Shown here: positions 1 through 44,058 of the stretch, piece by piece
How the letters are laid out: each line of letters begins with the position of its first letter
How positions within the stretch are numbered: the stretch's first letter is position 1
Assembly: GCF_011045215.1 (NCBI RefSeq)
Contig: NZ_CP049201.1
From: Escherichia coli
GTDB lineage: Bacteria > Pseudomonadota > Gammaproteobacteria > Enterobacterales > Enterobacteriaceae
Length of the DNA: 64,000 bases
Strand: one strand, 5' to 3'
Made by a program: the position numbers and the translations under genes
The notes under the pieces: generated by a model
Databases searched by the model: none
Told to the model about the DNA's origin: nothing
Seen by the model: the letters and a program-made list of their open reading frames with translations, nothing else

Positions 1-1
1 T

Positions 2-478
2 TACAATTTACTCCTGTTGATTGATGTCGGTGAATCTGGTCAACACAAACAATCTTTTGCCACCATAGCCACACAAGTTTTTGAAAAAGGCTATGATTTC
101 AGGCACGGTATTGCACTGGCTATTCCTGTGCTCATTACTGAATTATTAACCCGGTTAATGTGGACATGTAAACAATGGTTATATCATAAAAAGCCCTTGA
201 CTGAGTGTGTACCTGTAGAAAATGATCCGGAGTTAAGAAGAATGTTACTGATTGCTCATGGAACGCTCTGTATGATTGATGCTGGTGATGCAGCATTTAG
301 ATCCGGTGGTAATTTGATGACGTTTCTGCTGAGAACTAATATGGTCGGCTGGGTTCGGTTTGGTATGCTTGCGTTAAAAGAAGTTCATGGGTTATACAAC
401 ACAGGTCATATTGATGTTGATTCGGTTGATAAATATCTGGATACTGAATTAGAAAGATTATCATCTCATCTATACTAA
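2..478 (+). CDS. Hypothetical protein, C-terminal fragment; reading frame is open to the left window edge, so the 5' end is missing
   Basis: ORF track 17..478 begins at a TTG, but the same frame has no stop back to position 2. No recognisable motif. Lies inside the selC island. Confidence 0.4.
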   Translation, partial: YNLLLLIDVGESGQHKQSFATIATQVFEKGYDFRHGIALAIPVLITELLTRLMWTCKQWLYHKKPLTECVPVENDPELRRMLLIAHGTLCMIDAGDAAFRSGGNLMTFLLRTNMVGWVRFGMLALKEVHGLYNTGHIDVDSVDKYLDTELERLSSHLY

Positions 479-703
479 TCCCTCTGACAGGCCATTCTGC
501 TATAAAGACATGGGATGAATGATAATGATTGTCGGCGCTTTTTTCACGAAGGAAAGGGTAGTGACAGCCAGGTTTACAATGTACCGCTGCATATGTGGCG
601 GTTGACTATATCGGCTTCACGGTTTTCAGGATAAAGCATTAATCAGTAGTCCTGTATTAAGTATATCTGCCTCAGGCGAACATACTGTATTTTATAAATT
701 TTT

Positions 704-2308
704 ATGAAAAACAACCTTCTTTTTATATTCCTGTCGCGGATTAATAATGATAAAAGTATTGTGTTATCTGTGATTGTTTTTACGCTTGCTAATATGATTG
801 TATCATCAGGTGCACATCTGATTTATCGGGTATTATTCTTTACCCTGACTCTCCTTATTATCAAGAAGATAAAGTTATTTACGCTGCGTTTGATTCTTGC
901 TTTTCCGTTCACGTTACTGACTGCTGCAGATATCAGTATCAGCCTGTATTCATGGTGTACATTTGGCACAACATTTAATGATGGTTTTGCAATCAGTATC
1001 CTTCAGACAGATCCTGATGAAGTAATAAGAATGTTCAGGATGTATGTTGTTTATGTTATCGCATTTATTATCCTCTTTTTATTGTTCTTCTGTTCAGCAA
1101 TAAATAAAACGTCCTCATTGCCATCGGAAAAGGTCACGGTAATTACATTTTTATTGTTAATTACAGTAACGTTATATTCTTCCTTTCAGTTTGCGTTGAA
1201 GAAACAGTATCAAATAAATGAAGTTGATCCTTACATAGTCGCTTCCCGGTTTGCCACATATACCCCTTTCTTTAATCTGAACTATTTTGCACTGGCCGCA
1301 AAGGAGCATCAGAGATTAATGACGATTGCTGATACCATACCTCACTACGAGCTGATGATTACAGACAATAATATTGATGAATTTGTACTGATCATCGGTG
1401 AATCAGCAAGGACTGATAACATGTCCATTTACGGGTATTCGCGCCCAACCACACCAGAACTTCAGAAACAGAAATCACGGCTGAAACTGTTCACTCAGGC
1501 AATCAGTGGCGCACCTTACACTGCGCTGGCTGTTCCTCTGGCGTTGTCTGCCGATAGTGTACTGCATCATGATATCCGTAATTACCCTGATAACATTATC
1601 AACATGGCGAATCAGGCAGGGTTCGATACCTGGTGGCTCAGTGCGCAGTCCGCTTTCCGGCAGAACGGAACGGCTGTGGCCAGTATCGCCATACGGGCCA
1701 GAAACAGAATTTATGTCAGAGGCTATGATGAGTTACTGCTCCCACATCTGGCTGAAGCACTGAACAGTAATCCGGGAAGAAGGAAACTGATTGTTCTGCA
1801 TCTGACGGGCAGCCATGAACCAGTCTGCAGTAACTGGCCCAGAGATAAAGCCGTGTTTAAACCACTGGATACAGAAGAAGTCTGCTACGATAATTCCATT
1901 CATTATACCGACAGTTTGTTGGGGCGGGTTTTCGCCATGCTGGAAACGCGTCAGGCATCAGTCATGTATTTTTCAGATCACGGTCTGGAGTATGACCCGA
2001 CAAAAGAACATGCCTATCTTCATGGCGGAATAAAACCCAGCCAGCAGGCTTATCATGTTCCGATGTTTATCTGGTACAGCCCGGCTCTGGGAGAGCATGT
2101 CGATCGCCAGACGGTGAACAGCGTTTTTTCTACTGCGTATAATGATTATCTGATTAATGTATGGATGGGCGTAACCAGACCAGCTCAACCGAAAACGCCG
2201 GAGGAGGTGATCACCCGCTGGCAGGGGAAATCAAATGTTATTGATGCAAACCATAACGTGTTTGACTACAACGTATTACGAAAGAACTTTAATGAACCCC
2301 TGGAATAA
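704..2308 (+). CDS. Phosphoethanolamine transferase family protein (N-terminal multi-pass membrane region plus sulfatase-like catalytic domain; EptA/EptB/OpgE-like)
   Basis: 534 aa. Hydrophobic N-terminal third (e.g. LIIKKIKLFTLRLILAFPFTLL, VVYVIAFIILFLLFF). Periplasmic domain has the LIIGESARTDNMSIYGY motif typical of PEtN transferases, a candidate Thr nucleophile region (ISGAPYTALAVP) and a C-terminal HxxG-type region. Visibly AT-rich compared with the flanking core genes. Confidence 0.7.
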   Translation: MKNNLLFIFLSRINNDKSIVLSVIVFTLANMIVSSGAHLIYRVLFFTLTLLIIKKIKLFTLRLILAFPFTLLTAADISISLYSWCTFGTTFNDGFAISILQTDPDEVIRMFRMYVVYVIAFIILFLLFFCSAINKTSSLPSEKVTVITFLLLITVTLYSSFQFALKKQYQINEVDPYIVASRFATYTPFFNLNYFALAAKEHQRLMTIADTIPHYELMITDNNIDEFVLIIGESARTDNMSIYGYSRPTTPELQKQKSRLKLFTQAISGAPYTALAVPLALSADSVLHHDIRNYPDNIINMANQAGFDTWWLSAQSAFRQNGTAVASIAIRARNRIYVRGYDELLLPHLAEALNSNPGRRKLIVLHLTGSHEPVCSNWPRDKAVFKPLDTEEVCYDNSIHYTDSLLGRVFAMLETRQASVMYFSDHGLEYDPTKEHAYLHGGIKPSQQAYHVPMFIWYSPALGEHVDRQTVNSVFSTAYNDYLINVWMGVTRPAQPKTPEEVITRWQGKSNVIDANHNVFDYNVLRKNFNEPLE

Positions 2309-2364
2309 TTCGTTAAAGTAATTTACGACTCTATTCTTTTTTAAAGGAAACTTTCAGAAAATAA

Positions 2365-2454: not shown

Positions 2455-3498
2455 CTACTGATGCTGGATGCTTGAGTGTTTCATTCCTGCCGCTGAAAAC
2501 GGCAATATCCAGGGCCAGACATATTCACCGTTAATATTTCTGCATTTCTGTACAATTTCCTCAGAAAGTGTCTCATCAATTCTTTCCCACAACAACTTCT
2601 GCTGTCTTAAAATGCTTTCGCATATTTCGAAATCATCTTCCTGCATCAGCATTTCGGCGCATTTAATGATTTCTGCCCGTTCATGCAGCACAGAGGAATG
2701 GTTATAGAGCCAGTTTACAAACAGCAATGCTTCCGGATATTGTCCCCATAATGGTGAGTATGTTGCATAATAATCTTCGGCAGTATCCGGCCCGGCAGAA
2801 TAGTTATGCCATACAGCAAGAGGAAATGGATGCAGATTTCCGCACAGTATTTCTGCGATGTAAGTATTTGCCGTAAAGCCACGACGAAATGCAGTTGCAG
2901 CTTTTTCCAGTTCCCCATTAAGAAAATGCAGAAGGCCGAGTTCATACCAGTAAGGTGAAAATTCATCAGCGTACTCATTCAGTACACGGAAAGCTCGCTC
3001 ATGATCACCTGTTCGTAACAGTTCTGAACCCAACAACCAGCGGGTACCCTGATTATCTTCAGGATTGTATGCCAGTATTTTCTCAATGAGCATGATGGCA
3101 TCCTGATGACGTTGTAAATGTACATTTGCCAGGATTGCTGCATAAAGCGCGCGCAGATAAGGCCGGTTTTCGGGATGCATCCAGATGATTTCACCACTGA
3201 AACTTTCCGGGATGAGACGATTACCTGCCGCCAGTCCTTTAAGAGCGGCGTTCAGTGCCTTACGCGGGGCATTCTGCTCCAGAAATGCATATGCCAGATG
3301 AGCGTGTATATCAATAAAGTCAGGCTCCTGTTGAGCAAGGCGTCTGAGTTTGTTGATGTAACTCGCCTCACTGATTTCACCAGTATCGTATGTATCAAGC
3401 AGTTTTTCAAACTCCCCCGGTAATGGGCAAAACCAGGTATCCGGAAATACGAAACGCCCTTGGTTATCGTTTACTTTAAAGCGTAATTTGTCGTTCAT
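2455..3498 (-). CDS. Hypothetical protein with TPR-like helical repeats, function unknown
   Basis: 347-aa ORF with a clean start and an AT-rich upstream region. Ala/Leu-rich helical repeat character (e.g. ALKGLAAGNRL, YAAILANVHLQRHQDAIMLIEKILAYNPEDNQG, ELGLLHFLNGELEKAATAFRRG). No catalytic motif recognised. Confidence 0.55.
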   Translation of the reverse strand: MNDKLRFKVNDNQGRFVFPDTWFCPLPGEFEKLLDTYDTGEISEASYINKLRRLAQQEPDFIDIHAHLAYAFLEQNAPRKALNAALKGLAAGNRLIPESFSGEIIWMHPENRPYLRALYAAILANVHLQRHQDAIMLIEKILAYNPEDNQGTRWLLGSELLRTGDHERAFRVLNEYADEFSPYWYELGLLHFLNGELEKAATAFRRGFTANTYIAEILCGNLHPFPLAVWHNYSAGPDTAEDYYATYSPLWGQYPEALLFVNWLYNHSSVLHERAEIIKCAEMLMQEDDFEICESILRQQKLLWERIDETLSEEIVQKCRNINGEYVWPWILPFSAAGMKHSSIQHQ

Positions 3499-3850
3499 TT
3501 TCTGAGCCTGTAAAACGGATTGGACACAATCTGAAAAGCATAAAAGTCGTGATGTTGTGTATCAAGTCTTGTTTTTGTCCGGGATGAATGTTGTTTACAA
3601 TATCATCGACAGTGTTTTTATATGAGAATGAAAATTTATCTTTATCTGCATTCCAATGTATTGTGAATTGTCAGCTGAAACAGCATATTAATCGATTTTT
3701 TGATAATGGTGCTGAAATAACGACAGGATGATGATTGAAACTACTGGTATCAAAATTGTTAGCGGTCCATAATGGTGTGATGTTTTGAGATTGTTTATAG
3801 ATGCAATATTAAATATTTTGTCAAAAAACAAAAAATACCTAAAAATAAAG

Positions 3851-3888
3851 CATAAAAACAAAATTCCTCCGGACCAGGAGGCCGGAGG
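3851..3888 (-). terminator. Rho-independent terminator downstream of the integrase gene
   Basis: Stem cctccgg...ccggagg (3866-3888) followed on the minus strand by a T-rich run. Confidence 0.4.
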
Positions 3889-3928
3889 AGAATTTGTGGA
3901 TTGAGAGAAAATATCAGGACAAGTGCTC

Positions 3929-5119
3929 TTAACCCTGACTCTCTTGCTTAGAAAGCGAATCAATATAATCTGCGTACCACTGCATCATTTCACGGCGACC
4001 ATCGAGATACTGGGCATGATTATAGGTACCCCTGATGGCGTTTTTATCCACATGAGCTAACTGCATTTCAATCCAGGCGGAATTAAAGCCCTGTTCGTGC
4101 AGAATGGTACTCATGGTGTGTCTGAAACCGTGCCCTGTGAGTCTTCCCTTATATCCCAGTAATTCAATGACTTGGTTAATGCTTTCCTTACTAATTGGCT
4201 TGCGAGGATCGTTCCTACCGATAAAGACCAGAGGATGATGTTTTGTGATGGGTTCAAGTTGCTTAAATAGGGCAATGACCTGCTCAGAGAGCGGCACAAT
4301 ATGAGGTCGCTTCATCTTCATTACTTTTGCCGGAATCTCCCATAATTTTGTCTCAAAATCGATATCCTCCCAGCGTGCGAAACGTAATTCTTGTGTTCGT
4401 ACACCAGTTAACATAATGATCTGAGTAGCTGTCTTAGTGATGATACTTCCGGTATAACCCGCCAGATCGTTGAGGAAGTGGGGAAGTTCATTAGCAGTAA
4501 GAAAGGGAAAATGTACTTTTTTCGGTGTAGCTAAAGCACAGGCAAGATCGGGAGCAGGGTTGTAGTCTGCCCGACCAGTAACAATTGCATAGCGGAACAC
4601 TTCACCACAGCGCTGGCGGACTTTGCGCATTTTCTCCAGAGCTCCACGTTTTTCCATTTTACGCAGTGCTTCCAGTAACTCCATTGGTTTGATTTCGGCG
4701 ATAGGGCGTTTGCCAATGTAGGGAAAAATGTCTTTTTCAAAGGTATCAATGATTTCATCACGATAGCGTAATGACCACCGATCGGCTTTTGACTGATGCC
4801 ATTCGCGAGCAATGGCCTCGAACGTATTTTTCAAACTCATTTGTTGCGCGATTTTTTCTTCTTTTTTTGCCACCCCTGGATCGCCTCCAGCAGCGAGGAT
4901 TTTTCTGGCTTCGCTGCGTTTTTCACGAGCGTCGGCTAGCGTTACATCGGGGTATACGCCAATAGAAAGCATCTTTTCTTTACCAGCAAAGCGGTACTTC
5001 ATACGCCAGTATTTAGAACCATTAGTGTTAATCAGTAGATACATACCGCCGCCATCAGCAAGTTTATAGGGCTTTTCTTTTGGTTTTGCGGTTTTCACTT
5101 TAATATCGGTTAATGCCAT
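3929..5119 (-). CDS. int: P4-family tyrosine integrase (site-specific recombinase)
   Basis: 396 aa. C-terminal catalytic region with the conserved R...HxxR...Y residues (LTGHGFRHTMSTIL, IRGTYNHAQY). Same orientation as, and directly downstream of, the tRNA 3' end, the canonical layout for tRNA-targeting islands. Confidence 0.9.
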   Translation of the reverse strand: MALTDIKVKTAKPKEKPYKLADGGGMYLLINTNGSKYWRMKYRFAGKEKMLSIGVYPDVTLADAREKRSEARKILAAGGDPGVAKKEEKIAQQMSLKNTFEAIAREWHQSKADRWSLRYRDEIIDTFEKDIFPYIGKRPIAEIKPMELLEALRKMEKRGALEKMRKVRQRCGEVFRYAIVTGRADYNPAPDLACALATPKKVHFPFLTANELPHFLNDLAGYTGSIITKTATQIIMLTGVRTQELRFARWEDIDFETKLWEIPAKVMKMKRPHIVPLSEQVIALFKQLEPITKHHPLVFIGRNDPRKPISKESINQVIELLGYKGRLTGHGFRHTMSTILHEQGFNSAWIEMQLAHVDKNAIRGTYNHAQYLDGRREMMQWYADYIDSLSKQESQG

Positions 5120-5417
5120 GACATCCTCCGGCTTTTAATGAATTCATGTTCCTGAGGGGGACTTCTGCCAGTAATTAACCTGATACCCCCAATGCACCCC
5201 TTGTATAACAAAGATGTTGTTGAAAGCCGTTGTTATATATCATATTTTACCAATTATGGGGGTGCTGATATTTCAATAGGAAATAATACCCCCTAAAGTA
5301 CCCCCAAAAGCAACTTGATACGGGGTGAAGTCGGTTGACTTCTGGATACAAAGGAATCCTGATATACAAGGGATTAGAAGGGGTGGTTGACATCGGGGGA
5401 GTTCAGAAGATGTTAAT

Positions 5418-5512
5418 TGGCGGAAGATCACAGGAGTCGAACCTGCCCGGGACCGCTGGCGGCCCCAACTGGATTTGAAGTCCAGCCGCCTCACCGGAGA
5501 CGACGATCTTCC
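5418..5512 (-). tRNA. selC: tRNA-Sec (selenocysteine tRNA)
   Basis: 95-nt reverse-complement match to the E. coli selC sequence (GGAAGATCGTCGTCTCCGGTGAGGCGGCTGGACTTCAAATCCAGTTGGGGCCGCCAGCGGTCCCGGGCAGGTTCGACTCCTGTGATCTTCCGCCA) as I remember it; the 3' CCA is at 5418-5420. Confidence 0.95.
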
Positions 5513-5804
5513 GCGCCTCGATTGCTACATGGAGGCGGGGCGCATTATAGCTACTTCCTTGAGTTTCTACATCCCCCAGATCAGTTTTTTCCGCCTAATA
5601 CACGCAGCGTATTATCACGAAAGCATTATAGTTCATATAAAACCCATATTTTACAATGATATATGAGCGGAATTAACGCTACCACGATCACATAAAACAA
5701 GAATCATAAATTAATAACCAGATATCGGAATATTCGCTCTCACAGGGATGGTTTACAAAATGCGTTATCGGTCTCAGCACCCCTATAGCATCAAGGAAAA
5801 GCAG

Positions 5805-7187
5805 ATGAAGAGTGAAGTGTTGTCCGTTAAAGAGAAAATTGGTTATGGCATGGGAGACGCCGCCAGCCACATTATTTTCGATAACGTAATGTTATATATG
5901 ATGTTCTTTTATACCGATATTTTTGGCATTCCTGCCGGATTTGTCGGAACCATGTTTTTGGTCGCTCGTGCACTGGATGCGATTTCCGATCCTTGCATGG
6001 GGTTGTTGGCCGATCGAACGCGCTCTCGCTGGGGTAAATTTCGTCCGTGGGTACTGTTTGGCGCACTGCCATTCGGGATCGTCTGTGTACTGGCCTATAG
6101 CACGCCAGATCTCAGTATGAACGGCAAAATGATCTATGCAGCAATTACTTACACCCTACTTACCTTACTTTATACCGTCGTCAATATCCCTTACTGCGCA
6201 TTGGGTGGTGTAATCACCAATGAACCGACTCAGCGTATCTCGCTGCAATCCTGGCGTTTTGTGCTGGCGACCGCGGGAGGCATGCTCTCTACTGTTCTGA
6301 TGATGCCACTGGTTAATTTAATTGGTGGTGATAATAAACCACTCGGTTTCCAGGGCGGTATCGCGGTCCTTTCCGTGGTGGCATTCATGATGCTGGCATT
6401 CTGTTTTTTCACCACTAAAGAACGCGTTGAAGCACCACCTACAACGACGTCTATGCGGGAAGATTTACGTGATATCTGGCAAAACGACCAGTGGCGGATT
6501 GTCGGTTTACTAACCATTTTCAATATCCTGGCGGTGTGCGTACGCGGTGGAGCGATGATGTATTACGTCACATGGATTTTGGGTACGCCGGAAGTGTTTG
6601 TCGCTTTTCTCACCACTTATTGCGTGGGTAACCTGATTGGTTCCGCACTGGCAAAACCGCTGACCGACTGGAAATGTAAAGTCACTATCTTCTGGTGGAC
6701 GAACGCCCTGCTGGCAGTGATTAGCCTCGCGATGTTCTTTGTTCCCATGCAGGCCAGCATCACTATGTTTGTCTTCATCTTCGTGATTGGTGTGTTGCAT
6801 CAACTGGTGACACCTATCCAGTGGGTAATGATGTCCGATACCGTCGACTACGGCGAGTGGTGCAATGGTAAACGCCTGACCGGGATCAGTTTTGCTGGCA
6901 CGCTGTTTGTGCTCAAACTGGGGTTGGCCTTCGGCGGCGCTCTTATCGGCTGGATGCTGGCTTATGGCGGATATGATGCGGCAGAAAAAGCGCAGAACAG
7001 CGCCACGATTAGCATCATTATTGCGCTATTCACGATTGTTCCGGCGATCTGTTATTTGCTGAGCGCGATTATCGCTAAACGCTACTACTCACTCACGACG
7101 CACAATCTGAAAACCGTTATGGAACAGCTGGCTCAGGGTAAACGCCGTTGCCAGCAACAATTCACCTCTCAAGAAGTGCAGAACTAA
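5805..7187 (+). CDS. yicJ: GPH-family sugar:cation symporter (putative xyloside transporter)
   Basis: 460 aa from MKSEVLSVKEKIGYGMGD; 12-TM MFS/GPH profile; directly upstream of yicI. Confidence 0.85.
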   Translation: MKSEVLSVKEKIGYGMGDAASHIIFDNVMLYMMFFYTDIFGIPAGFVGTMFLVARALDAISDPCMGLLADRTRSRWGKFRPWVLFGALPFGIVCVLAYSTPDLSMNGKMIYAAITYTLLTLLYTVVNIPYCALGGVITNEPTQRISLQSWRFVLATAGGMLSTVLMMPLVNLIGGDNKPLGFQGGIAVLSVVAFMMLAFCFFTTKERVEAPPTTTSMREDLRDIWQNDQWRIVGLLTIFNILAVCVRGGAMMYYVTWILGTPEVFVAFLTTYCVGNLIGSALAKPLTDWKCKVTIFWWTNALLAVISLAMFFVPMQASITMFVFIFVIGVLHQLVTPIQWVMMSDTVDYGEWCNGKRLTGISFAGTLFVLKLGLAFGGALIGWMLAYGGYDAAEKAQNSATISIIIALFTIVPAICYLLSAIIAKRYYSLTTHNLKTVMEQLAQGKRRCQQQFTSQEVQN

Positions 7188-7196
7188 GGAACGGCA

Positions 7197-9515
7197 ATGA
7201 AAATTAGCGATGGAAACTGGTTGATTCAACCTGGCCTCAATTTGATTCACCCGCTTCAGGTGTTCGAGGTTGAACAGCAGGGTAATGAAATGGTGGTCTA
7301 TGCTGCCCCCCGTGATGTGCGTGAACGTACCTGGCAGCTTGACACGCCTTTATTTACGCTGCGCTTTTTCTCCCCACAGGAAGGTATTGTCGGTGTGCGG
7401 ATTGAGCATTTTCAGGGGGCGCTGAATAACGGTCCTCATTATCCGCTCAATATTTTGCAGGACGTGAAGGTCACAATCGAAAACACAGAACGTTATGCTG
7501 AGTTTAAAAGTGGCAACTTAAGCGCGCGTGTCAGCAAAGGTGAGTTCTGGTCACTGGATTTTCTGCGCAACGGCGAACGTATTACCGGTAGTCAGGTGAA
7601 AAATAATGGCTACGTGCAGGACACGAATAATCAACGAAATTATATGTTTGAGCGGCTTGATCTTGGCGTTGGCGAAACAGTTTATGGTCTGGGAGAGCGC
7701 TTTACTGCCCTGGTGCGCAATGGTCAGACGGTAGAAACCTGGAACCGGGACGGCGGCACAAGTACTGAACAGGCGTATAAAAATATCCCGTTCTACATGA
7801 CTAACCGTGGTTATGGGGTACTGGTCAATCATCCCCAATGCGTCTCTTTTGAAGTGGGATCGGAGAAAGTCTCCAAAGTGCAGTTCAGCGTTGAGAGTGA
7901 ATATCTCGAATACTTTGTTATCGACGGCCCGACGCCGAAAGCGGTACTTGATCGTTATACCCGCTTTACTGGTCGTCCGGCGCTGCCGCCCGCGTGGTCC
8001 TTCGGTCTGTGGCTAACCACTTCATTTACCACCAACTACGACGAAGCGACGGTAAATAGCTTTATTGATGGTATGGCGGAACGCAATCTGCCGCTGCATG
8101 TTTTCCACTTTGACTGTTTCTGGATGAAAGCCTTCCAGTGGTGCGATTTTGAGTGGGACCCGCTGACTTTCCCGGACCCGGAAGGGATGATCCGCCGCCT
8201 GAAAGCGAAAGGGCTGAAAATCTGCGTCTGGATTAACCCCTATATTGGGCAAAAATCCCCCGTCTTTAAAGAGTTACAAGAGAAAGGTTATTTACTCAAA
8301 CGCCCGGACGGTTCGCTGTGGCAGTGGGATAAATGGCAGCCAGGTCTGGCGATTTATGACTTTACCAATCCGGATGCCTGCAAATGGTACGCCGACAAAC
8401 TGAAAGGTCTGGTCGCGATGGGCGTTGATTGCTTTAAGACCGACTTTGGCGAACGTATCCCAACCGATGTTCAGTGGTTTGACGGTTCCGATCCGCAGAA
8501 AATGCATAACCATTATGCGTACATCTACAACGAACTGGTGTGGAACGTGCTCAAGGACACCGTTGGTGAGGAAGAAGCTGTCTTGTTTGCCCGCTCGGCC
8601 TCCGTCGGTGCGCAGAAATTCCCGGTACACTGGGGTGGCGACTGTTACGCTAACTACGAATCAATGGCGGAAAGCCTGCGCGGTGGTTTGTCTATTGGCC
8701 TTTCAGGTTTTGGCTTCTGGAGCCACGATATCGGCGGCTTTGAGAATACCGCGCCGGCGCACGTTTACAAACGCTGGTGCGCGTTTGGTTTGCTCTCCAG
8801 CCATAGTCGTTTACATGGCAGCAAATCTTATCGTGTGCCGTGGGCCTACGATGATGAGTCCTGTGATGTGGTGCGCTTCTTCACGCAACTGAAATGCCGC
8901 ATGATGCCGTATCTGTATCGTGAAGCTGCGCGTGCGAACGCGCGGGGTACGCCGATGATGCGGGCCATGATGATGGAGTTCCCGGACGATCCGGCTTGTG
9001 ATTACCTTGACCGTCAATACATGCTAGGCGACAACGTGATGGTTGCTCCGGTGTTCACTGAGGAGGGCGAGGTGCAGTTCTACTTGCCGGAAGGTCGCTG
9101 GACACACCTGTGGCACAACGATGAGCTCGACGGTAGTCGCTGGCATAAACAGCAGCACGGCTTCCTGAGTCTGCCCGTTTATGTGCGTGATAACACCCTA
9201 CTGGCGCTGGGCAACAACGATCAACGTCCCGATTACGCGTGGCACGAAGGTACGGCATTCCAGCTCTTTAAACTGCAAGACGGGCATGAAGCCGTCTGTG
9301 AAGTGCCCGCTGCTGACGGTTCGGTGATCTTTACTTTAAAAGCAGCACGTACTGGCAACACGATTACTGTGACTGGTGCGGGCGAGGCGAAGAACTGGAC
9401 GCTGTGCTTGCGCAATGTTGTGAAAGTAAATGGTCTGCAAGGCGGTTCGCAGGCTGAAAGTGAGCAGGGACTGGTGGTGACTCCTCAAGGGAATGCGCTG
9501 ACAATTACGGTGTAA
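7197..9515 (+). CDS. yicI: Alpha-xylosidase, glycoside hydrolase family 31
   Basis: 772 aa with GH31 signature regions ([18 protein letters not shown]); length and synteny match YicI. Confidence 0.9.
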
Positions 9516-9567
9516 TCTATTGATGGAATGCCGGGTACGTCTGAGTCGTACCCGGCGAGATTGATGT

Positions 9568-11277
9568 TTACTGCACCAGCTCTGCCGACGTAACTTCACC
9601 GCTGGAAACGATGCCAGCATTCATGGTTTGAGTCACTTGCTGCTTTGCGGCATTCACGGCATGCAATTGCCCGCTAACCGTAGGTTTCAGCGGGACATTG
9701 GCCTGAATATCGCCACTGGCGGTAAGCTGAATATTGCCGTCGCCAGTCAACGGTAATTCAGGCCATCCCCAATGTTGCAAAATATTCACCGGCACACCGC
9801 GTCCATTCAGGCTGATATGGGTCTGACGTTGTGGCGTTTGTGAAACACTGGCGGTGGCTTCCAGAATGCCTTTTTCAGTAAATGCACTCAGTTCGCTGAT
9901 ATTCACCGTGCTGCTGTTGGCGGTTAGCGCCAGCGATGGACGACGGACATCAACACGATTAAACGTCGCGGCGGCGGCATTCAGATTCGCCGAACCACTC
10001 CAGACGCCCCATTTATGATCGGTAACCAGCGTCAGGTTGGCACCGTAACCATCGAGCGCGGTGAGCTGCCACGGGAAGTCAGGGTCGATATCAATGATCA
10101 GATTGCGGCTGGCGCTAAATCTCTTCAGTTGCAGGCTGTTTAACCAACCCGGTGTCGTTTCCATCCACAACTGTTGCCAGTTTTTCGGCAAGGTATATTC
10201 CAGCCCGGCAATTGCCGCATCATCAAGGAGTAACGTTTTCCCGTCACGCAGCCAGTTCCCTGACGTTCTGACCATACCCCCTTCCCAGCGGCTGGTGAAC
10301 TGGCGCAGCGCTACGCCCTGCGGGGAAAATTCCGCGTTTATAATCGGGTCAAATAAATGCAGCGAACCATAAATGAACTCGCTGGCGTTCATCGACAGTT
10401 TGCCTTCTTGTGTCTGCCAGTCATCTTTACTGAAGGTCATGTTGCGCAAGCTGAGATCGAGGTCGGTCACCGCCCAGTCCGGACCTTGCAGACGAGCATC
10501 GATCACTTCCAGGCGACCAATCTGCAACGACGGGACAGAGCGTAATGGCGCAAAGAAGTCGGCTAGCGATTTTTCGCTTTGTAGACGGATATCCGCCATG
10601 CGCAGATTTTCCACTTGCCAGCTGCCGTCGGCGTTACGCTGCGCGTTTCCGGTTAATGTCCCGCGCGCGATGTCGGCACCCAGGTTAGTCAGCGTAACGC
10701 GATCGTTATCAATACTGCCTTCAATCAGTACATTGGTGGCAGGAATATCATTGAGCGAAAGCGATCCGGCACTAAACTGAATCTGCGCCTTCGTACCCAG
10801 CACTTTACCGGCTTCTGGTGACCACGGAACCACGCCGCCATTTACCCGCTGCGCGCTCAGTTTCCATTCGCTATTCGGGCTATTAAACGCCATATCACGC
10901 AGTTGCAGACGATCGGCTTTGAACGGTAGCGGCGCGGTCTGGTCGGTGAGATTCAGCGTTCCGTTTTCCAGCAGGATGGTATCGACATGGCGTGGTTCGG
11001 TCAGTTGCCGACTGCTTAGCGCAATGTCGACACTTTTTGCCACCAGGGTCGCGGGCTGACCATCACGACCAAATGTGACGTTCTCCAGCACGATATGAGA
11101 TGGCGCGGAAAAACGGTGATCCATCGCCCCGAAGGCCAGATGATAGTCGCTATTCTCGGAAACCCATGCGCTGATATGTTCTGCTCCCCAGCGGGTTTGC
11201 AGAAGAAAATAGAGGCCAGCGATCACCACTAACAGAGCGATGAGAATGTAGAGAAGCAGCTTCCCAATAAATTTCAT
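9568..11277 (-). CDS. yicH: AsmA-family membrane protein
   Basis: 569 aa from MKFIGKLLLYILIALLVVIAG (N-terminal anchor); conserved position between yicI and xanP. Confidence 0.85.
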   Translation of the reverse strand: MKFIGKLLLYILIALLVVIAGLYFLLQTRWGAEHISAWVSENSDYHLAFGAMDHRFSAPSHIVLENVTFGRDGQPATLVAKSVDIALSSRQLTEPRHVDTILLENGTLNLTDQTAPLPFKADRLQLRDMAFNSPNSEWKLSAQRVNGGVVPWSPEAGKVLGTKAQIQFSAGSLSLNDIPATNVLIEGSIDNDRVTLTNLGADIARGTLTGNAQRNADGSWQVENLRMADIRLQSEKSLADFFAPLRSVPSLQIGRLEVIDARLQGPDWAVTDLDLSLRNMTFSKDDWQTQEGKLSMNASEFIYGSLHLFDPIINAEFSPQGVALRQFTSRWEGGMVRTSGNWLRDGKTLLLDDAAIAGLEYTLPKNWQQLWMETTPGWLNSLQLKRFSASRNLIIDIDPDFPWQLTALDGYGANLTLVTDHKWGVWSGSANLNAAAATFNRVDVRRPSLALTANSSTVNISELSAFTEKGILEATASVSQTPQRQTHISLNGRGVPVNILQHWGWPELPLTGDGNIQLTASGDIQANVPLKPTVSGQLHAVNAAKQQVTQTMNAGIVSSGEVTSAELVQ

Positions 11278-11397
11278 GGTCTTCCATCCCGTGAAATGCA
11301 CATAAGGGAGTTATGCACGATTTACGCGCAATCCTCAAGGCGGGAATGGTGAAAGAGGTGAGACTGCGGCGGTAATTATCTTACCGCCGCCAGTGAA

Positions 11398-12789
11398 TTA
11401 CTGTTTTTCTGGTGGGAAAATCAGATTCAGCACGATGGCAGTAATACCGCCCGCGGCGATCCCGGAGGAGAGCAGGTTTTTCAGCCATTCAGGGGCAAAC
11501 TGCAAAATCAGCGGCTGCTGAGACACGCCCAGACCAACCGCCAGCGACAGCGCGATAATCAGAATCGCCCGACGGTTCAGCGGCTCACGAGACACAATGC
11601 GCACACCGGAGGCGGCAATGGTGCCAAACATTACAAGCGTTGCGCCGCCCAGAACCGGTTCTGGAATGTGTTGTACAAAACCGCTCACTGCCGGGAACAG
11701 ACCCAGCACGATCAACATCAGCGCGACGACAAAACCGACATAGCGGCTGGCAACACCGGTCAACTGGATCACTCCGTTGTTCTGCCCGAAGCAGGAGTTC
11801 GGGAAGGTGTTAAACACCGCCGAAACAAACGAGTTCAGGCCGTTTGCCAGCACGCCGCCTTTCAGGCGTTTCATGTACAGCGGACCGGACACTGGCTGTT
11901 CGGAAACGTCAGAGGTCGCCGTGATATCGCCAATGGTTTCCAGCGAAGTGATCATAAAGACCAGCATCAGCGGCAGCAGCAGACTCCATTCAATGCCAAG
12001 ACCGTAATAGAGCGGCGTTGGCACCATAATCAGTTCTTGCGTCATCGGTTCGTTGCTTTCTGGCAACATGCCCATAAACCACGCCAGCGCATATCCGGCC
12101 GCCATCGCAATCACCAGTGAGGCCACGCGTAAGTAAGGGTTACGTTGACGGTTAAGCAGGATAATTAAGGCTAAGACCACGCCTGCCAGCAGCAGATTTT
12201 TCGGTGCGCCGAAGGTGTTATCGCTCATGGCTGCGTAACCGCCGCCAATTGAGGTCAGCCCCACCTGAATTAGCGACAGGCCGATAATCATCACCACAAC
12301 GCCAGAAACCAGCGGCGTAATAATGCGGCGCGCCAGATGCAGAACACGGGAGATCACCATCTCGGTGCAACTTGCCAGCATCAACGTGCCGAACAAAGCC
12401 GCCATCATGGTAGGAACATCAGCACCACCGGTTTTCAGCGCGGTACCGCCCATAATCAGCGGGGCAACAAAGTTGAAGCTGGTGCCCTGAATAGACAACA
12501 GCCCGGAGCCAACCGGACCCCAGGCCTTAATTTGAATAATCGATGCCACACCGGAGGCAAACAGCGACATACTAATAATGTGTTGCGTGTCTTGTGCCGG
12601 TAAACCCAGCGCCTGGCAGATTAATAGCGCTGGCGTGATCACCGCAACGAACATCGCCAGCAAATGCTGACAGGCGGCAAACAGGGTTTGAGGAAGCGGC
12701 GGACGATCTTCAAGACGGTAAATCAGTTCGCTGTTTTGAGTCTGCGCAACCGGTTGCGCATTTTCTGACTCGAGGGTGGAAACAGACAT
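11398..12789 (-). CDS. xanP: Xanthine permease (NCS2 family)
   Basis: 463 aa from [12 protein letters not shown]; polytopic NCS2 profile; synteny. Confidence 0.85.
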
Positions 12790-43069: not shown

Positions 43070-44058
43070 CTTATCTCCGATGTCAACTTATTGATTATTA
43101 TTTCAAGATTTAAATTTTGAAAAACGGTTTGAGCTGGCAAATCTGCAAGAGACATACTTGTAGAACGACACTCTACTTGATTCTTCCCATACCCGCCAAT
43201 TAATCCCGGATCGGTTGGTCCATAAACCGTGATATTGGGTCTATCCAGTGCCGCCGTTAAATGGCTTAACCCCGTATCCACCGACACTACAAATTTAGCC
43301 CCGGCCAGCACGCGGGCAACGCCTTCCAGACTCATCTTCGGTAATACTTCAACATAAGCAAATCCTTCCGCCAGTCGTTTCGCCCGTTCTTCCTCATGCG
43401 GCGCGCCCCACGGAAGTTTAATCCGTATTCCTGAATCAGCCAGTAAACCAATCAATTCTCGCCAGTGTTCTTCCGGCCAGTGTTTATCATCACGGGTCGT
43501 CGCATGAAGAAATACGGCATATTCGCCAGCATCTGTAGGCAGATTCGTCAGGAAATGCTGTGCAATAGCATAATCGCCCTGGGTTTGCGGTTTGCTATAG
43601 CCCAGACTTTTGGCAAACAGTTCGCGGGTGCGTTCTACGGCGTGCTGCTGTTTTGCAATATGATGCTTACGATTGTAAAACAGACTGGCTAAAGGTTCGC
43701 GAGCGGTTTTCCAGTCCATGCCATGCTTTACGCCATGCGCCAGACGCGTCACCAGCGCCGCGCTTTTTACCAGCCCCTGAGCGTCGATAACTGCGTCATA
43801 GTTCTCTGCTTGTAGCGCTTCACGAAACGCTTTGCGTTCCGCTTTTATGGGGGCCGAGAACCAGGCTTTACGCCAGCGACGTATTGCCACAGGAATAACT
43901 CGCTCAACGGCAGCGTGCCAGGAAGGAATCTGTGCGAACCCTTCTTCCACCACCCAGTCAAACTTAATCCCTGGGATTGCCTGCTGGGCATCAGTGAGTG
44001 CGGGCAACGTATGGAGAACATCGCCCATCGACGATGTTTTAACGATCAAAACCCGCAT
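43066..44058 (-). CDS. waaC: LPS heptosyltransferase I
   Basis: 330 aa from MRVLIVKTSSMGDVLHTLPALTDAQQAIPGIKFDWVVEEGFAQIP. Confidence 0.9.
   Translation of the reverse strand: MRVLIVKTSSMGDVLHTLPALTDAQQAIPGIKFDWVVEEGFAQIPSWHAAVERVIPVAIRRWRKAWFSAPIKAERKAFREALQAENYDAVIDAQGLVKSAALVTRLAHGVKHGMDWKTAREPLASLFYNRKHHIAKQQHAVERTRELFAKSLGYSKPQTQGDYAIAQHFLTNLPTDAGEYAVFLHATTRDDKHWPEEHWRELIGLLADSGIRIKLPWGAPHEEERAKRLAEGFAYVEVLPKMSLEGVARVLAGAKFVVSVDTGLSHLTAALDRPNITVYGPTDPGLIGGYGKNQVECRSTSMSLADLPAQTVFQNLNLEIIINKLTSEIR

Follow-up and report, generated by a model that had tools for sequence, protein, structure and literature searches.

What protein ends in the first few hundred bases of this 64,000-nucleotide stretch of an Escherichia coli genome (contig NZ_CP049201.1 of assembly GCF_011045215.1; hereafter the window), whose reading frame runs off the left edge, and does the frame encode a protein at all? 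On the + strand, frame 2 reads without interruption from base 2 to a TAA stop at 476-478, which gives 158 sense codons. An ORF listing that requires a start codon reports 17..478 instead, and there is still no in-frame stop between position 17 and the window edge. Local GC content is ~39%, at which we estimate ~0.065 stops per random codon and a chance of ~3e-5 for a run of 158 stop-free codons. Comparison with the closest relatives gave pN values of 0.13-0.16 against pS values of 0.67-0.81 (dN/dS ~0.07-0.10, with dS near saturation), and because of this disparity 2-478 is, on its substitution pattern, a real and conserved coding sequence under purifying selection. Alignments of relatives additionally place five family-invariant residues in the fragment, namely D32, R34, P42, D93 and N113 (D373, R375, P383, D434 and N454 in full-length numbering), encoded at nucleotides 95-97, 101-103, 125-127, 278-280 and 338-340 respectively, and the fragment keeps all columns that are invariant across 13 relatives.

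The family to which the frame belongs is BnzB. Against the PADLOC BnzB profile (PDLC03834) the fragment scores E=6.4e-65 and 218 bits, with its residues 1-155 aligned to profile positions 346-502 of 504, collinear with the C-terminal end of the profile, and in a PADLOC scan at E<=1 BnzB was the sole match, with no LeoA, LeoBC or LeoC. BnzB is the hypothetical-protein partner in Bunzi, a two-gene anti-phage system whose other component, BnzA, carries a TerB domain, transmembrane helices and a putative lipid-binding domain (Millman et al. 2022). We are therefore close to certain that 2-478 encodes the final third of bnzB, which comes second in a bnzA-bnzB anti-phage cassette; taken whole, as the 3′ end of an anti-phage gene carried as island cargo, this explanation is very likely right. 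The original prediction had found no recognisable family here, and to the extent that it concerns Pfam, NCBIfam and the PDB this holds: the fragment and its full-length relatives match no Pfam or NCBIfam family, 86 BnzB members scanned singly gave no consistent family, and the PDB likewise yielded no match. Since BnzB has no Pfam or NCBIfam model, standard annotation calls it a ‘hypothetical protein’. What did not survive is the view of an unknown protein, as homology and domain searches led to the clear BnzB membership described above and to a ~90%-identical E. coli homologue in Table S2 of Millman et al. (2022). Domain searches also found TerB or DUF533 signal to be absent from both the fragment and full-length BnzB; the TerB-like domain is a feature of the partner BnzA.

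Search method had a strong effect on the apparent size of the family. Queried with the 158-aa fragment, a first, word-indexed protein search gave 18 matches, all at <=71% identity, and missed a 99%-identical protein (P0169). The 18 matches were fragmentary or frameshifted proteins, and judged by them the family seemed much scarcer than it really is. With the ~400 printed residues of the published E. coli BnzB as query, 1,936 clusters were recovered at E<=1e-30, with P0169 on top.

P0169 provides the full-length view of the truncated gene. Its residues 342-499, out of 499, are identical to the fragment at 157 of 158 positions, and its gene is found on three independent Logan contigs (L067-L069) to which window positions 1-478 are identical at 477 of 478 nucleotides. 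The earlier expectation that the ORF starts outside the window and forms the C-terminus of a larger protein is thus borne out, since frame 2 is stop-free to base 2 and alignment to P0169 puts 341 codons of bnzB to the left of the window. All three contigs share one gene order: a 136-aa gene in opposite orientation, a 248-aa outer membrane protein (OMP) gene, a 555-aa gene, the P0169 gene, a 225-nt spacer and a sulfatase-family gene. The 555-aa protein covers the whole BnzA profile (E=3e-188) and the 499-aa protein the whole BnzB profile (positions 9-502, E=1.8e-201), so that bnzA and bnzB are both intact, and the start of the P0169 gene overlaps the stop of the 555-aa gene by 1 nt. Because these near-identical contigs carry an intact bnzA-bnzB pair, we infer that the missing 5′ 1,022 nt of bnzB lie immediately left of the window, and the 1,668-nt bnzA very probably lies immediately left of it too. 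A minor difference among the three contigs concerns BnzA residue 350 (gene at L067 2401-4065), inside a Gly-rich membrane segment, which is Pro in one contig and Leu in the other two; across 45 BnzA sequences this column holds M, L, F or V, and Pro350 probably reflects either a sequencing error or a variant confined to one contig.

To the right of bnzB, the window allows the genomic setting of the cassette to be interrogated. The spacer at 479..703 (+) travels with bnzB, being identical to the Bunzi contigs at 225 of 225 nucleotides (224 of 225 in L069); a scan of 479-703 found no terminator, and with a fold z-score of -0.26 there is no significant structured RNA. It is followed by genes of an island backbone: a 534-aa phosphoethanolamine (pEtN) transferase of the sulfatase family at 704..2308 on the + strand (Pfam Sulfatase, 4e-50) and, on the - strand, a 347-aa TPR-repeat protein at 2455..3498 (Pfam TPR, with the same annotation in E. 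coli islands). The island tyrosine integrase of 396 aa lies at 3929..5119 (-), with Pfam Arm-DNA-bind_3, Phage_int_M and Phage_integrase domains, and the integration site is the tRNA-Sec gene selC at 5418..5512 (-), found with ARAGORN. The core genes yicJ, yicI, yicH and xanP come after selC, and positions 5400-12000 are 99.5% identical to the E. coli chromosome. The reading frame had originally been assigned to island cargo, which agrees with this integrase-bearing island at selC, and the mobile-element and defence context of the fragment further includes low GC content and an insertion slot that is common to leoCBA.

The boundary between cargo and backbone can be placed closely. Sixty-nine complete E. 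coli genomes carry the backbone at selC, with ~96% identity (the pEtN-transferase gene is ~93-96% identical to E. coli island copies), and in all 69 the homology begins at window position 690. Among 5,426 complete E. coli genomes, DNA searches in near and distant modes found none with window positions 1-700. Over window positions 1-2310, identity to the Bunzi contigs is ~95.5% overall, with nearly all of the ~100 mismatches in the pEtN-transferase gene; because bnzB and the spacer are 99.8-100% identical while the mismatches are concentrated in that gene, we place a mosaic junction near ~690-704. The flanks of the cassette in L067 match the island of E. coli JNU (L070), at 90% for the tia-type OMP gene and 92.5% for the pEtN-MFS segment, and between these flanks JNU carries leoC-leoB-leoA (L070 2380-7229, 4.9 kb) where L067 carries bnzA-bnzB (L067 2128-5785, 3.7 kb). 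We read the cassette as cargo that was acquired horizontally and now rides on an E. coli island of the tia/leo (‘Tia-PAI’) type integrated at selC. Homologues of the leo operon constitute a dynamin-like anti-phage system (Millman et al. 2022), and since the Bunzi cassette sits in the leoCBA slot, the arrangement suggests that part of the ‘Tia pathogenicity island’ of enterotoxigenic E. coli (ETEC) is a swap site for membrane-associated anti-phage systems. Much like Bunzi, leoCBA of ETEC H10407-type islands is membrane-associated and has homologues that defend against phage, but its proteins are unrelated dynamin-like GTPases, and it is a positional analogue of Bunzi, not a homologue. In further E. 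coli strains this slot is filled by genes for an HTH regulator, a ‘chemotaxis protein’ and a ‘cobalamin adenosyltransferase’.

Bunzi is an already described family, and an E. coli representative is already published and tested, so that the window holds the closing part of a defence gene that already has a name and whose E. coli version is in the literature. That representative, SG139 from E. coli CVM N34228PS, is entered with observed defence ‘x’ (Millman et al. 2022, Table S2). It shares with the lineage of the fragment its species, its two-gene layout and its protein sizes (BnzA 555 aa, BnzB 499 aa), but is a separate allele, ~7-12% diverged: SG139 BnzB is 93% identical to P0169 over 399 aa, SG139 BnzA is 89% identical to BnzA of the P0169 lineage, and the fragment itself matches at 51 of 58 residues (88%) in an overlap limited to 58 residues, the sequence being printed to ~400 residues. 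The tested system with a positive entry (‘v’, phage protection in B. subtilis) is SG138 of Ligilactobacillus animalis DSM 20602 (Millman et al. 2022, Table S2). It belongs to the same PADLOC BnzA and BnzB families with the same gene order and proteins of 546 and 487 aa, and shares the motifs NHH-K-S-x-H-x-PD, NW-GH-x-SD-x-GSS and GxP-PF as well as GYD/GFD-x-R, the last of which is visible in the window. SG138 is nevertheless a distant, Firmicute system (Firmicute BnzB proteins are ~41-50% identical to the fragment), and phage protection has been demonstrated for it and for no E. coli copy. A lactococcal Bunzi homologue likewise gave no protection.

There are possible alternative explanations for the copy in this strain. 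The first is that it is a decaying or inactive remnant, either truncated or frameshifted upstream of the window or intact and carried as passive, non-defending island cargo. This could be argued from the 5′ part of bnzB lying outside the window, from the lack of observed defence by the ~90%-identical E. coli system, from the absence of window positions 1-700 from the complete E. coli genomes, and from frameshifts in relatives, which affect bnzB and/or bnzA in a Magnetospirillum MAG (L002/L020), a Logan contig (L003), and Citrobacter koseri NCTC10786 (L045), and bnzA in Morganella (L007) and in L030. At such loci, whose frameshifts may be assembly errors or real pseudogenes, gene callers give ‘half’ proteins of ~175-260 aa. 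The 158 visible codons, however, contain neither stop nor frameshift and retain every family-invariant residue, the near-perfect nucleotide match is to three contigs in which both genes are intact, selection across the family is strongly purifying, and a negative plaque assay with about a dozen coliphages does not prove inactivity. We therefore regard a remnant as unlikely, and prefer the reading of an intact defence cassette.

A second alternative, which we hold to be improbable, is that bnzAB in E. coli serves primarily as a TerB-type envelope-stress or virulence membrane module that cooperates with the tia-like invasin and with the pEtN transferase acting on lipid A/LPS. The TerB domain has its origin in cassettes for tellurite and stress resistance (Millman et al. 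2022), the cassette does have a tia-like OMP gene on one side and a pEtN transferase on the other within an island of Tia-PAI type, neither the E. coli nor the lactococcal homologue gave observed defence, and the neighbours of the bnzAB relatives in L008 and L013, which gave no match to PADLOC, are not known defence genes. Against this, a pEtN transferase occurs near bnzB at 0 of 59 other BnzB loci, so that a functional link between Bunzi and this enzyme was rejected in favor of simple adjacency to the island backbone. One Bunzi homologue, moreover, does protect against phage, the slot alternates with leoCBA, whose homologues form a phage-defence system, and bnzAB relatives adjoin AbiJ, McrBC and restriction-modification (R-M) genes, as well as transposases. 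Finally, a three-gene Bunzi variant with a split BnzB and a separate ~257-aa C-terminal-half protein, as the database proteins P0002 and P0015 and the gene calls in L002 and L003 might imply (the first matches were proteins of 257-258 aa that cover only BnzB profile positions 253-502, with a separate ~260-aa upstream ORF matching the N-terminal half), is refuted by DNA-level alignment and can be practically discounted, since a Vibrio BnzB of full length can be followed without a gap through these loci, at the cost of one change of frame in L002 and two in L003 that mark the split ORFs as frameshifts, the N-terminal ORF of L003 reads through the supposed start motif, and the 99%-identical relative, like ~40 genome copies, is a single ORF (of 499 aa in the relative).

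The two-gene cassette that we favor is widespread and consistent in its organization. A survey restricted to one genome per species yielded the 59 BnzB loci, from Gamma-, Beta-, Alpha- and Epsilonproteobacteria, Desulfobacterota and Firmicutes, in which the closest relatives of the fragment are Morganella psychrotolerans (76%), Photobacterium aquae (74%) and Aeromonas bivalvium (73%). In ~50 of the 59, bnzB is a single frame of 490-530 aa with a bnzA of ~550 aa immediately upstream, and the A-then-B order is kept across Proteobacteria, Campylobacterota and Firmicutes. An exhaustive search with a Vibrio BnzB recovered 933 representative clusters at E<=1e-3, of which 182 reach E<=1e-30. Within BnzB the N-terminal third is variable and the remainder forms a conserved core, and the window holds the second half of this core, with 12 columns conserved at >=90%, including the invariant D, R, P, D and N. 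A single phage record, NatCom_3357 from human feces (PV036416.1), has similarity to the fragment, through a hypothetical protein at 43119-43526 with 39% identity over 76% of the fragment (E=1e-19).

How Bunzi works is where the remaining interest of the locus lies, together with BnzB as a confidently predicted fold without a solved relative. A role in ‘membrane surveillance’ has been proposed as possible (Millman et al. 2022), and in the literature to 2026 we found nothing on the mechanism beyond that 2022 description and surveys. The predicted model of BnzB (pLDDT 91, pTM 0.76) is almost wholly helical, with a long helix in the variable N-terminal part followed by a conserved all-helical core at residues ~146-499. 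One helix is strongly hydrophobic and glycine-rich, several others are moderately hydrophobic and carry invariant polar residues, and the invariant set of the core consists of His, Asp, Ser, Arg and Asn residues. In the model of BnzA from the P0169 lineage, a beta-rich domain at the N terminus leads into a helical domain, after which come a Gly-rich hydrophobic segment predicted at low confidence, long coiled helices and, at the C terminus, one further small domain; weak DUF533/TerB Pfam matches occur in 17 of 45 BnzA members, and as the model fits these matches we read the helical domain as TerB-like. The tight operon with its overlap of stop and start suggests that BnzA and BnzB are co-expressed and form a complex.

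One possible hypothesis, which we put forward tentatively, is a sensor-effector pair at the inner membrane that acts by abortive infection. BnzA would be a membrane-anchored sensor of phage-induced perturbation of the inner membrane, while BnzB, made in amounts coupled to BnzA, would bind it and act as the effector, most likely by damaging the integrity or the energetics of the membrane and thereby aborting infection. The helices in the window that carry D373, R375, D434 and N454 may then contribute to the functional site of BnzB or to its interface with BnzA or the membrane. We have counted against function of the window allele the ‘x’ of the ~90%-identical SG139, the negative lactococcal system, the frameshifted relatives and the L008 and L013 neighbours that lack PADLOC matches. 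A more ambitious version is doubtful: here BnzB would be a fold without solved representative, in which the invariant His, Ser, Asp, Arg and Asn residues, some of them encoded in the window, build a site close to the membrane for catalysis or ion conduction, Bunzi and Leo would be interchangeable membrane-acting cassettes in the Tia island, and E. coli Bunzi would be active only against other phage types than those tested.

Weak similarities connect Bunzi to other membrane-associated systems. The Gly-rich membrane segment of BnzA shows faint similarity to PADLOC LeoBC (E ~1e-3), and weak matches to LeoBC and PDC-M09A were seen for BnzA of L067 (~311-444), BnzA of L004 (329-459) and a small membrane protein in L005 (E ~1e-3), which hints, at the level of sequence, at a glycine-zipper membrane module common to Bunzi, Leo and PDC-M09. 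L005 is the E. coli IncHI2A plasmid pESC17ND16-1, where positions 3587-5477 encode a 165-aa protein and a 462-aa BnzB-like protein. The BnzB-like gene of such IncHI2-type plasmids matches the BnzB profile at 4.5e-53 and is 28% identical to the fragment, but in place of a full BnzA it is paired with the 165-aa membrane protein, whose match to BnzA (and to LeoBC) is confined to the Gly-rich segment. This distant, reduced Bunzi-like pair is found in 486 plasmid records, on conjugative IncHI2-type plasmids of Enterobacter, Salmonella, Klebsiella and E. coli. A BnzB-like gene on Lactobacillales plasmids, in PDC-M09 candidate pairs, matches the BnzB profile at 4.3e-100; it differs from Bunzi in Lactiplantibacillus plantarum (plasmid pMF1298-3, L006 4200-6753) in that the BnzB-like gene heads the pair and its downstream partner matches PDC-M09A, not BnzA. 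Plasmid copies of this kind account for the plasmid-borne Bunzi that surveys list in Salmonella. Because a BnzB-like gene here pairs with a PDC-M09A-type protein, Bunzi is tied to the PADLOC candidate system PDC-M09.
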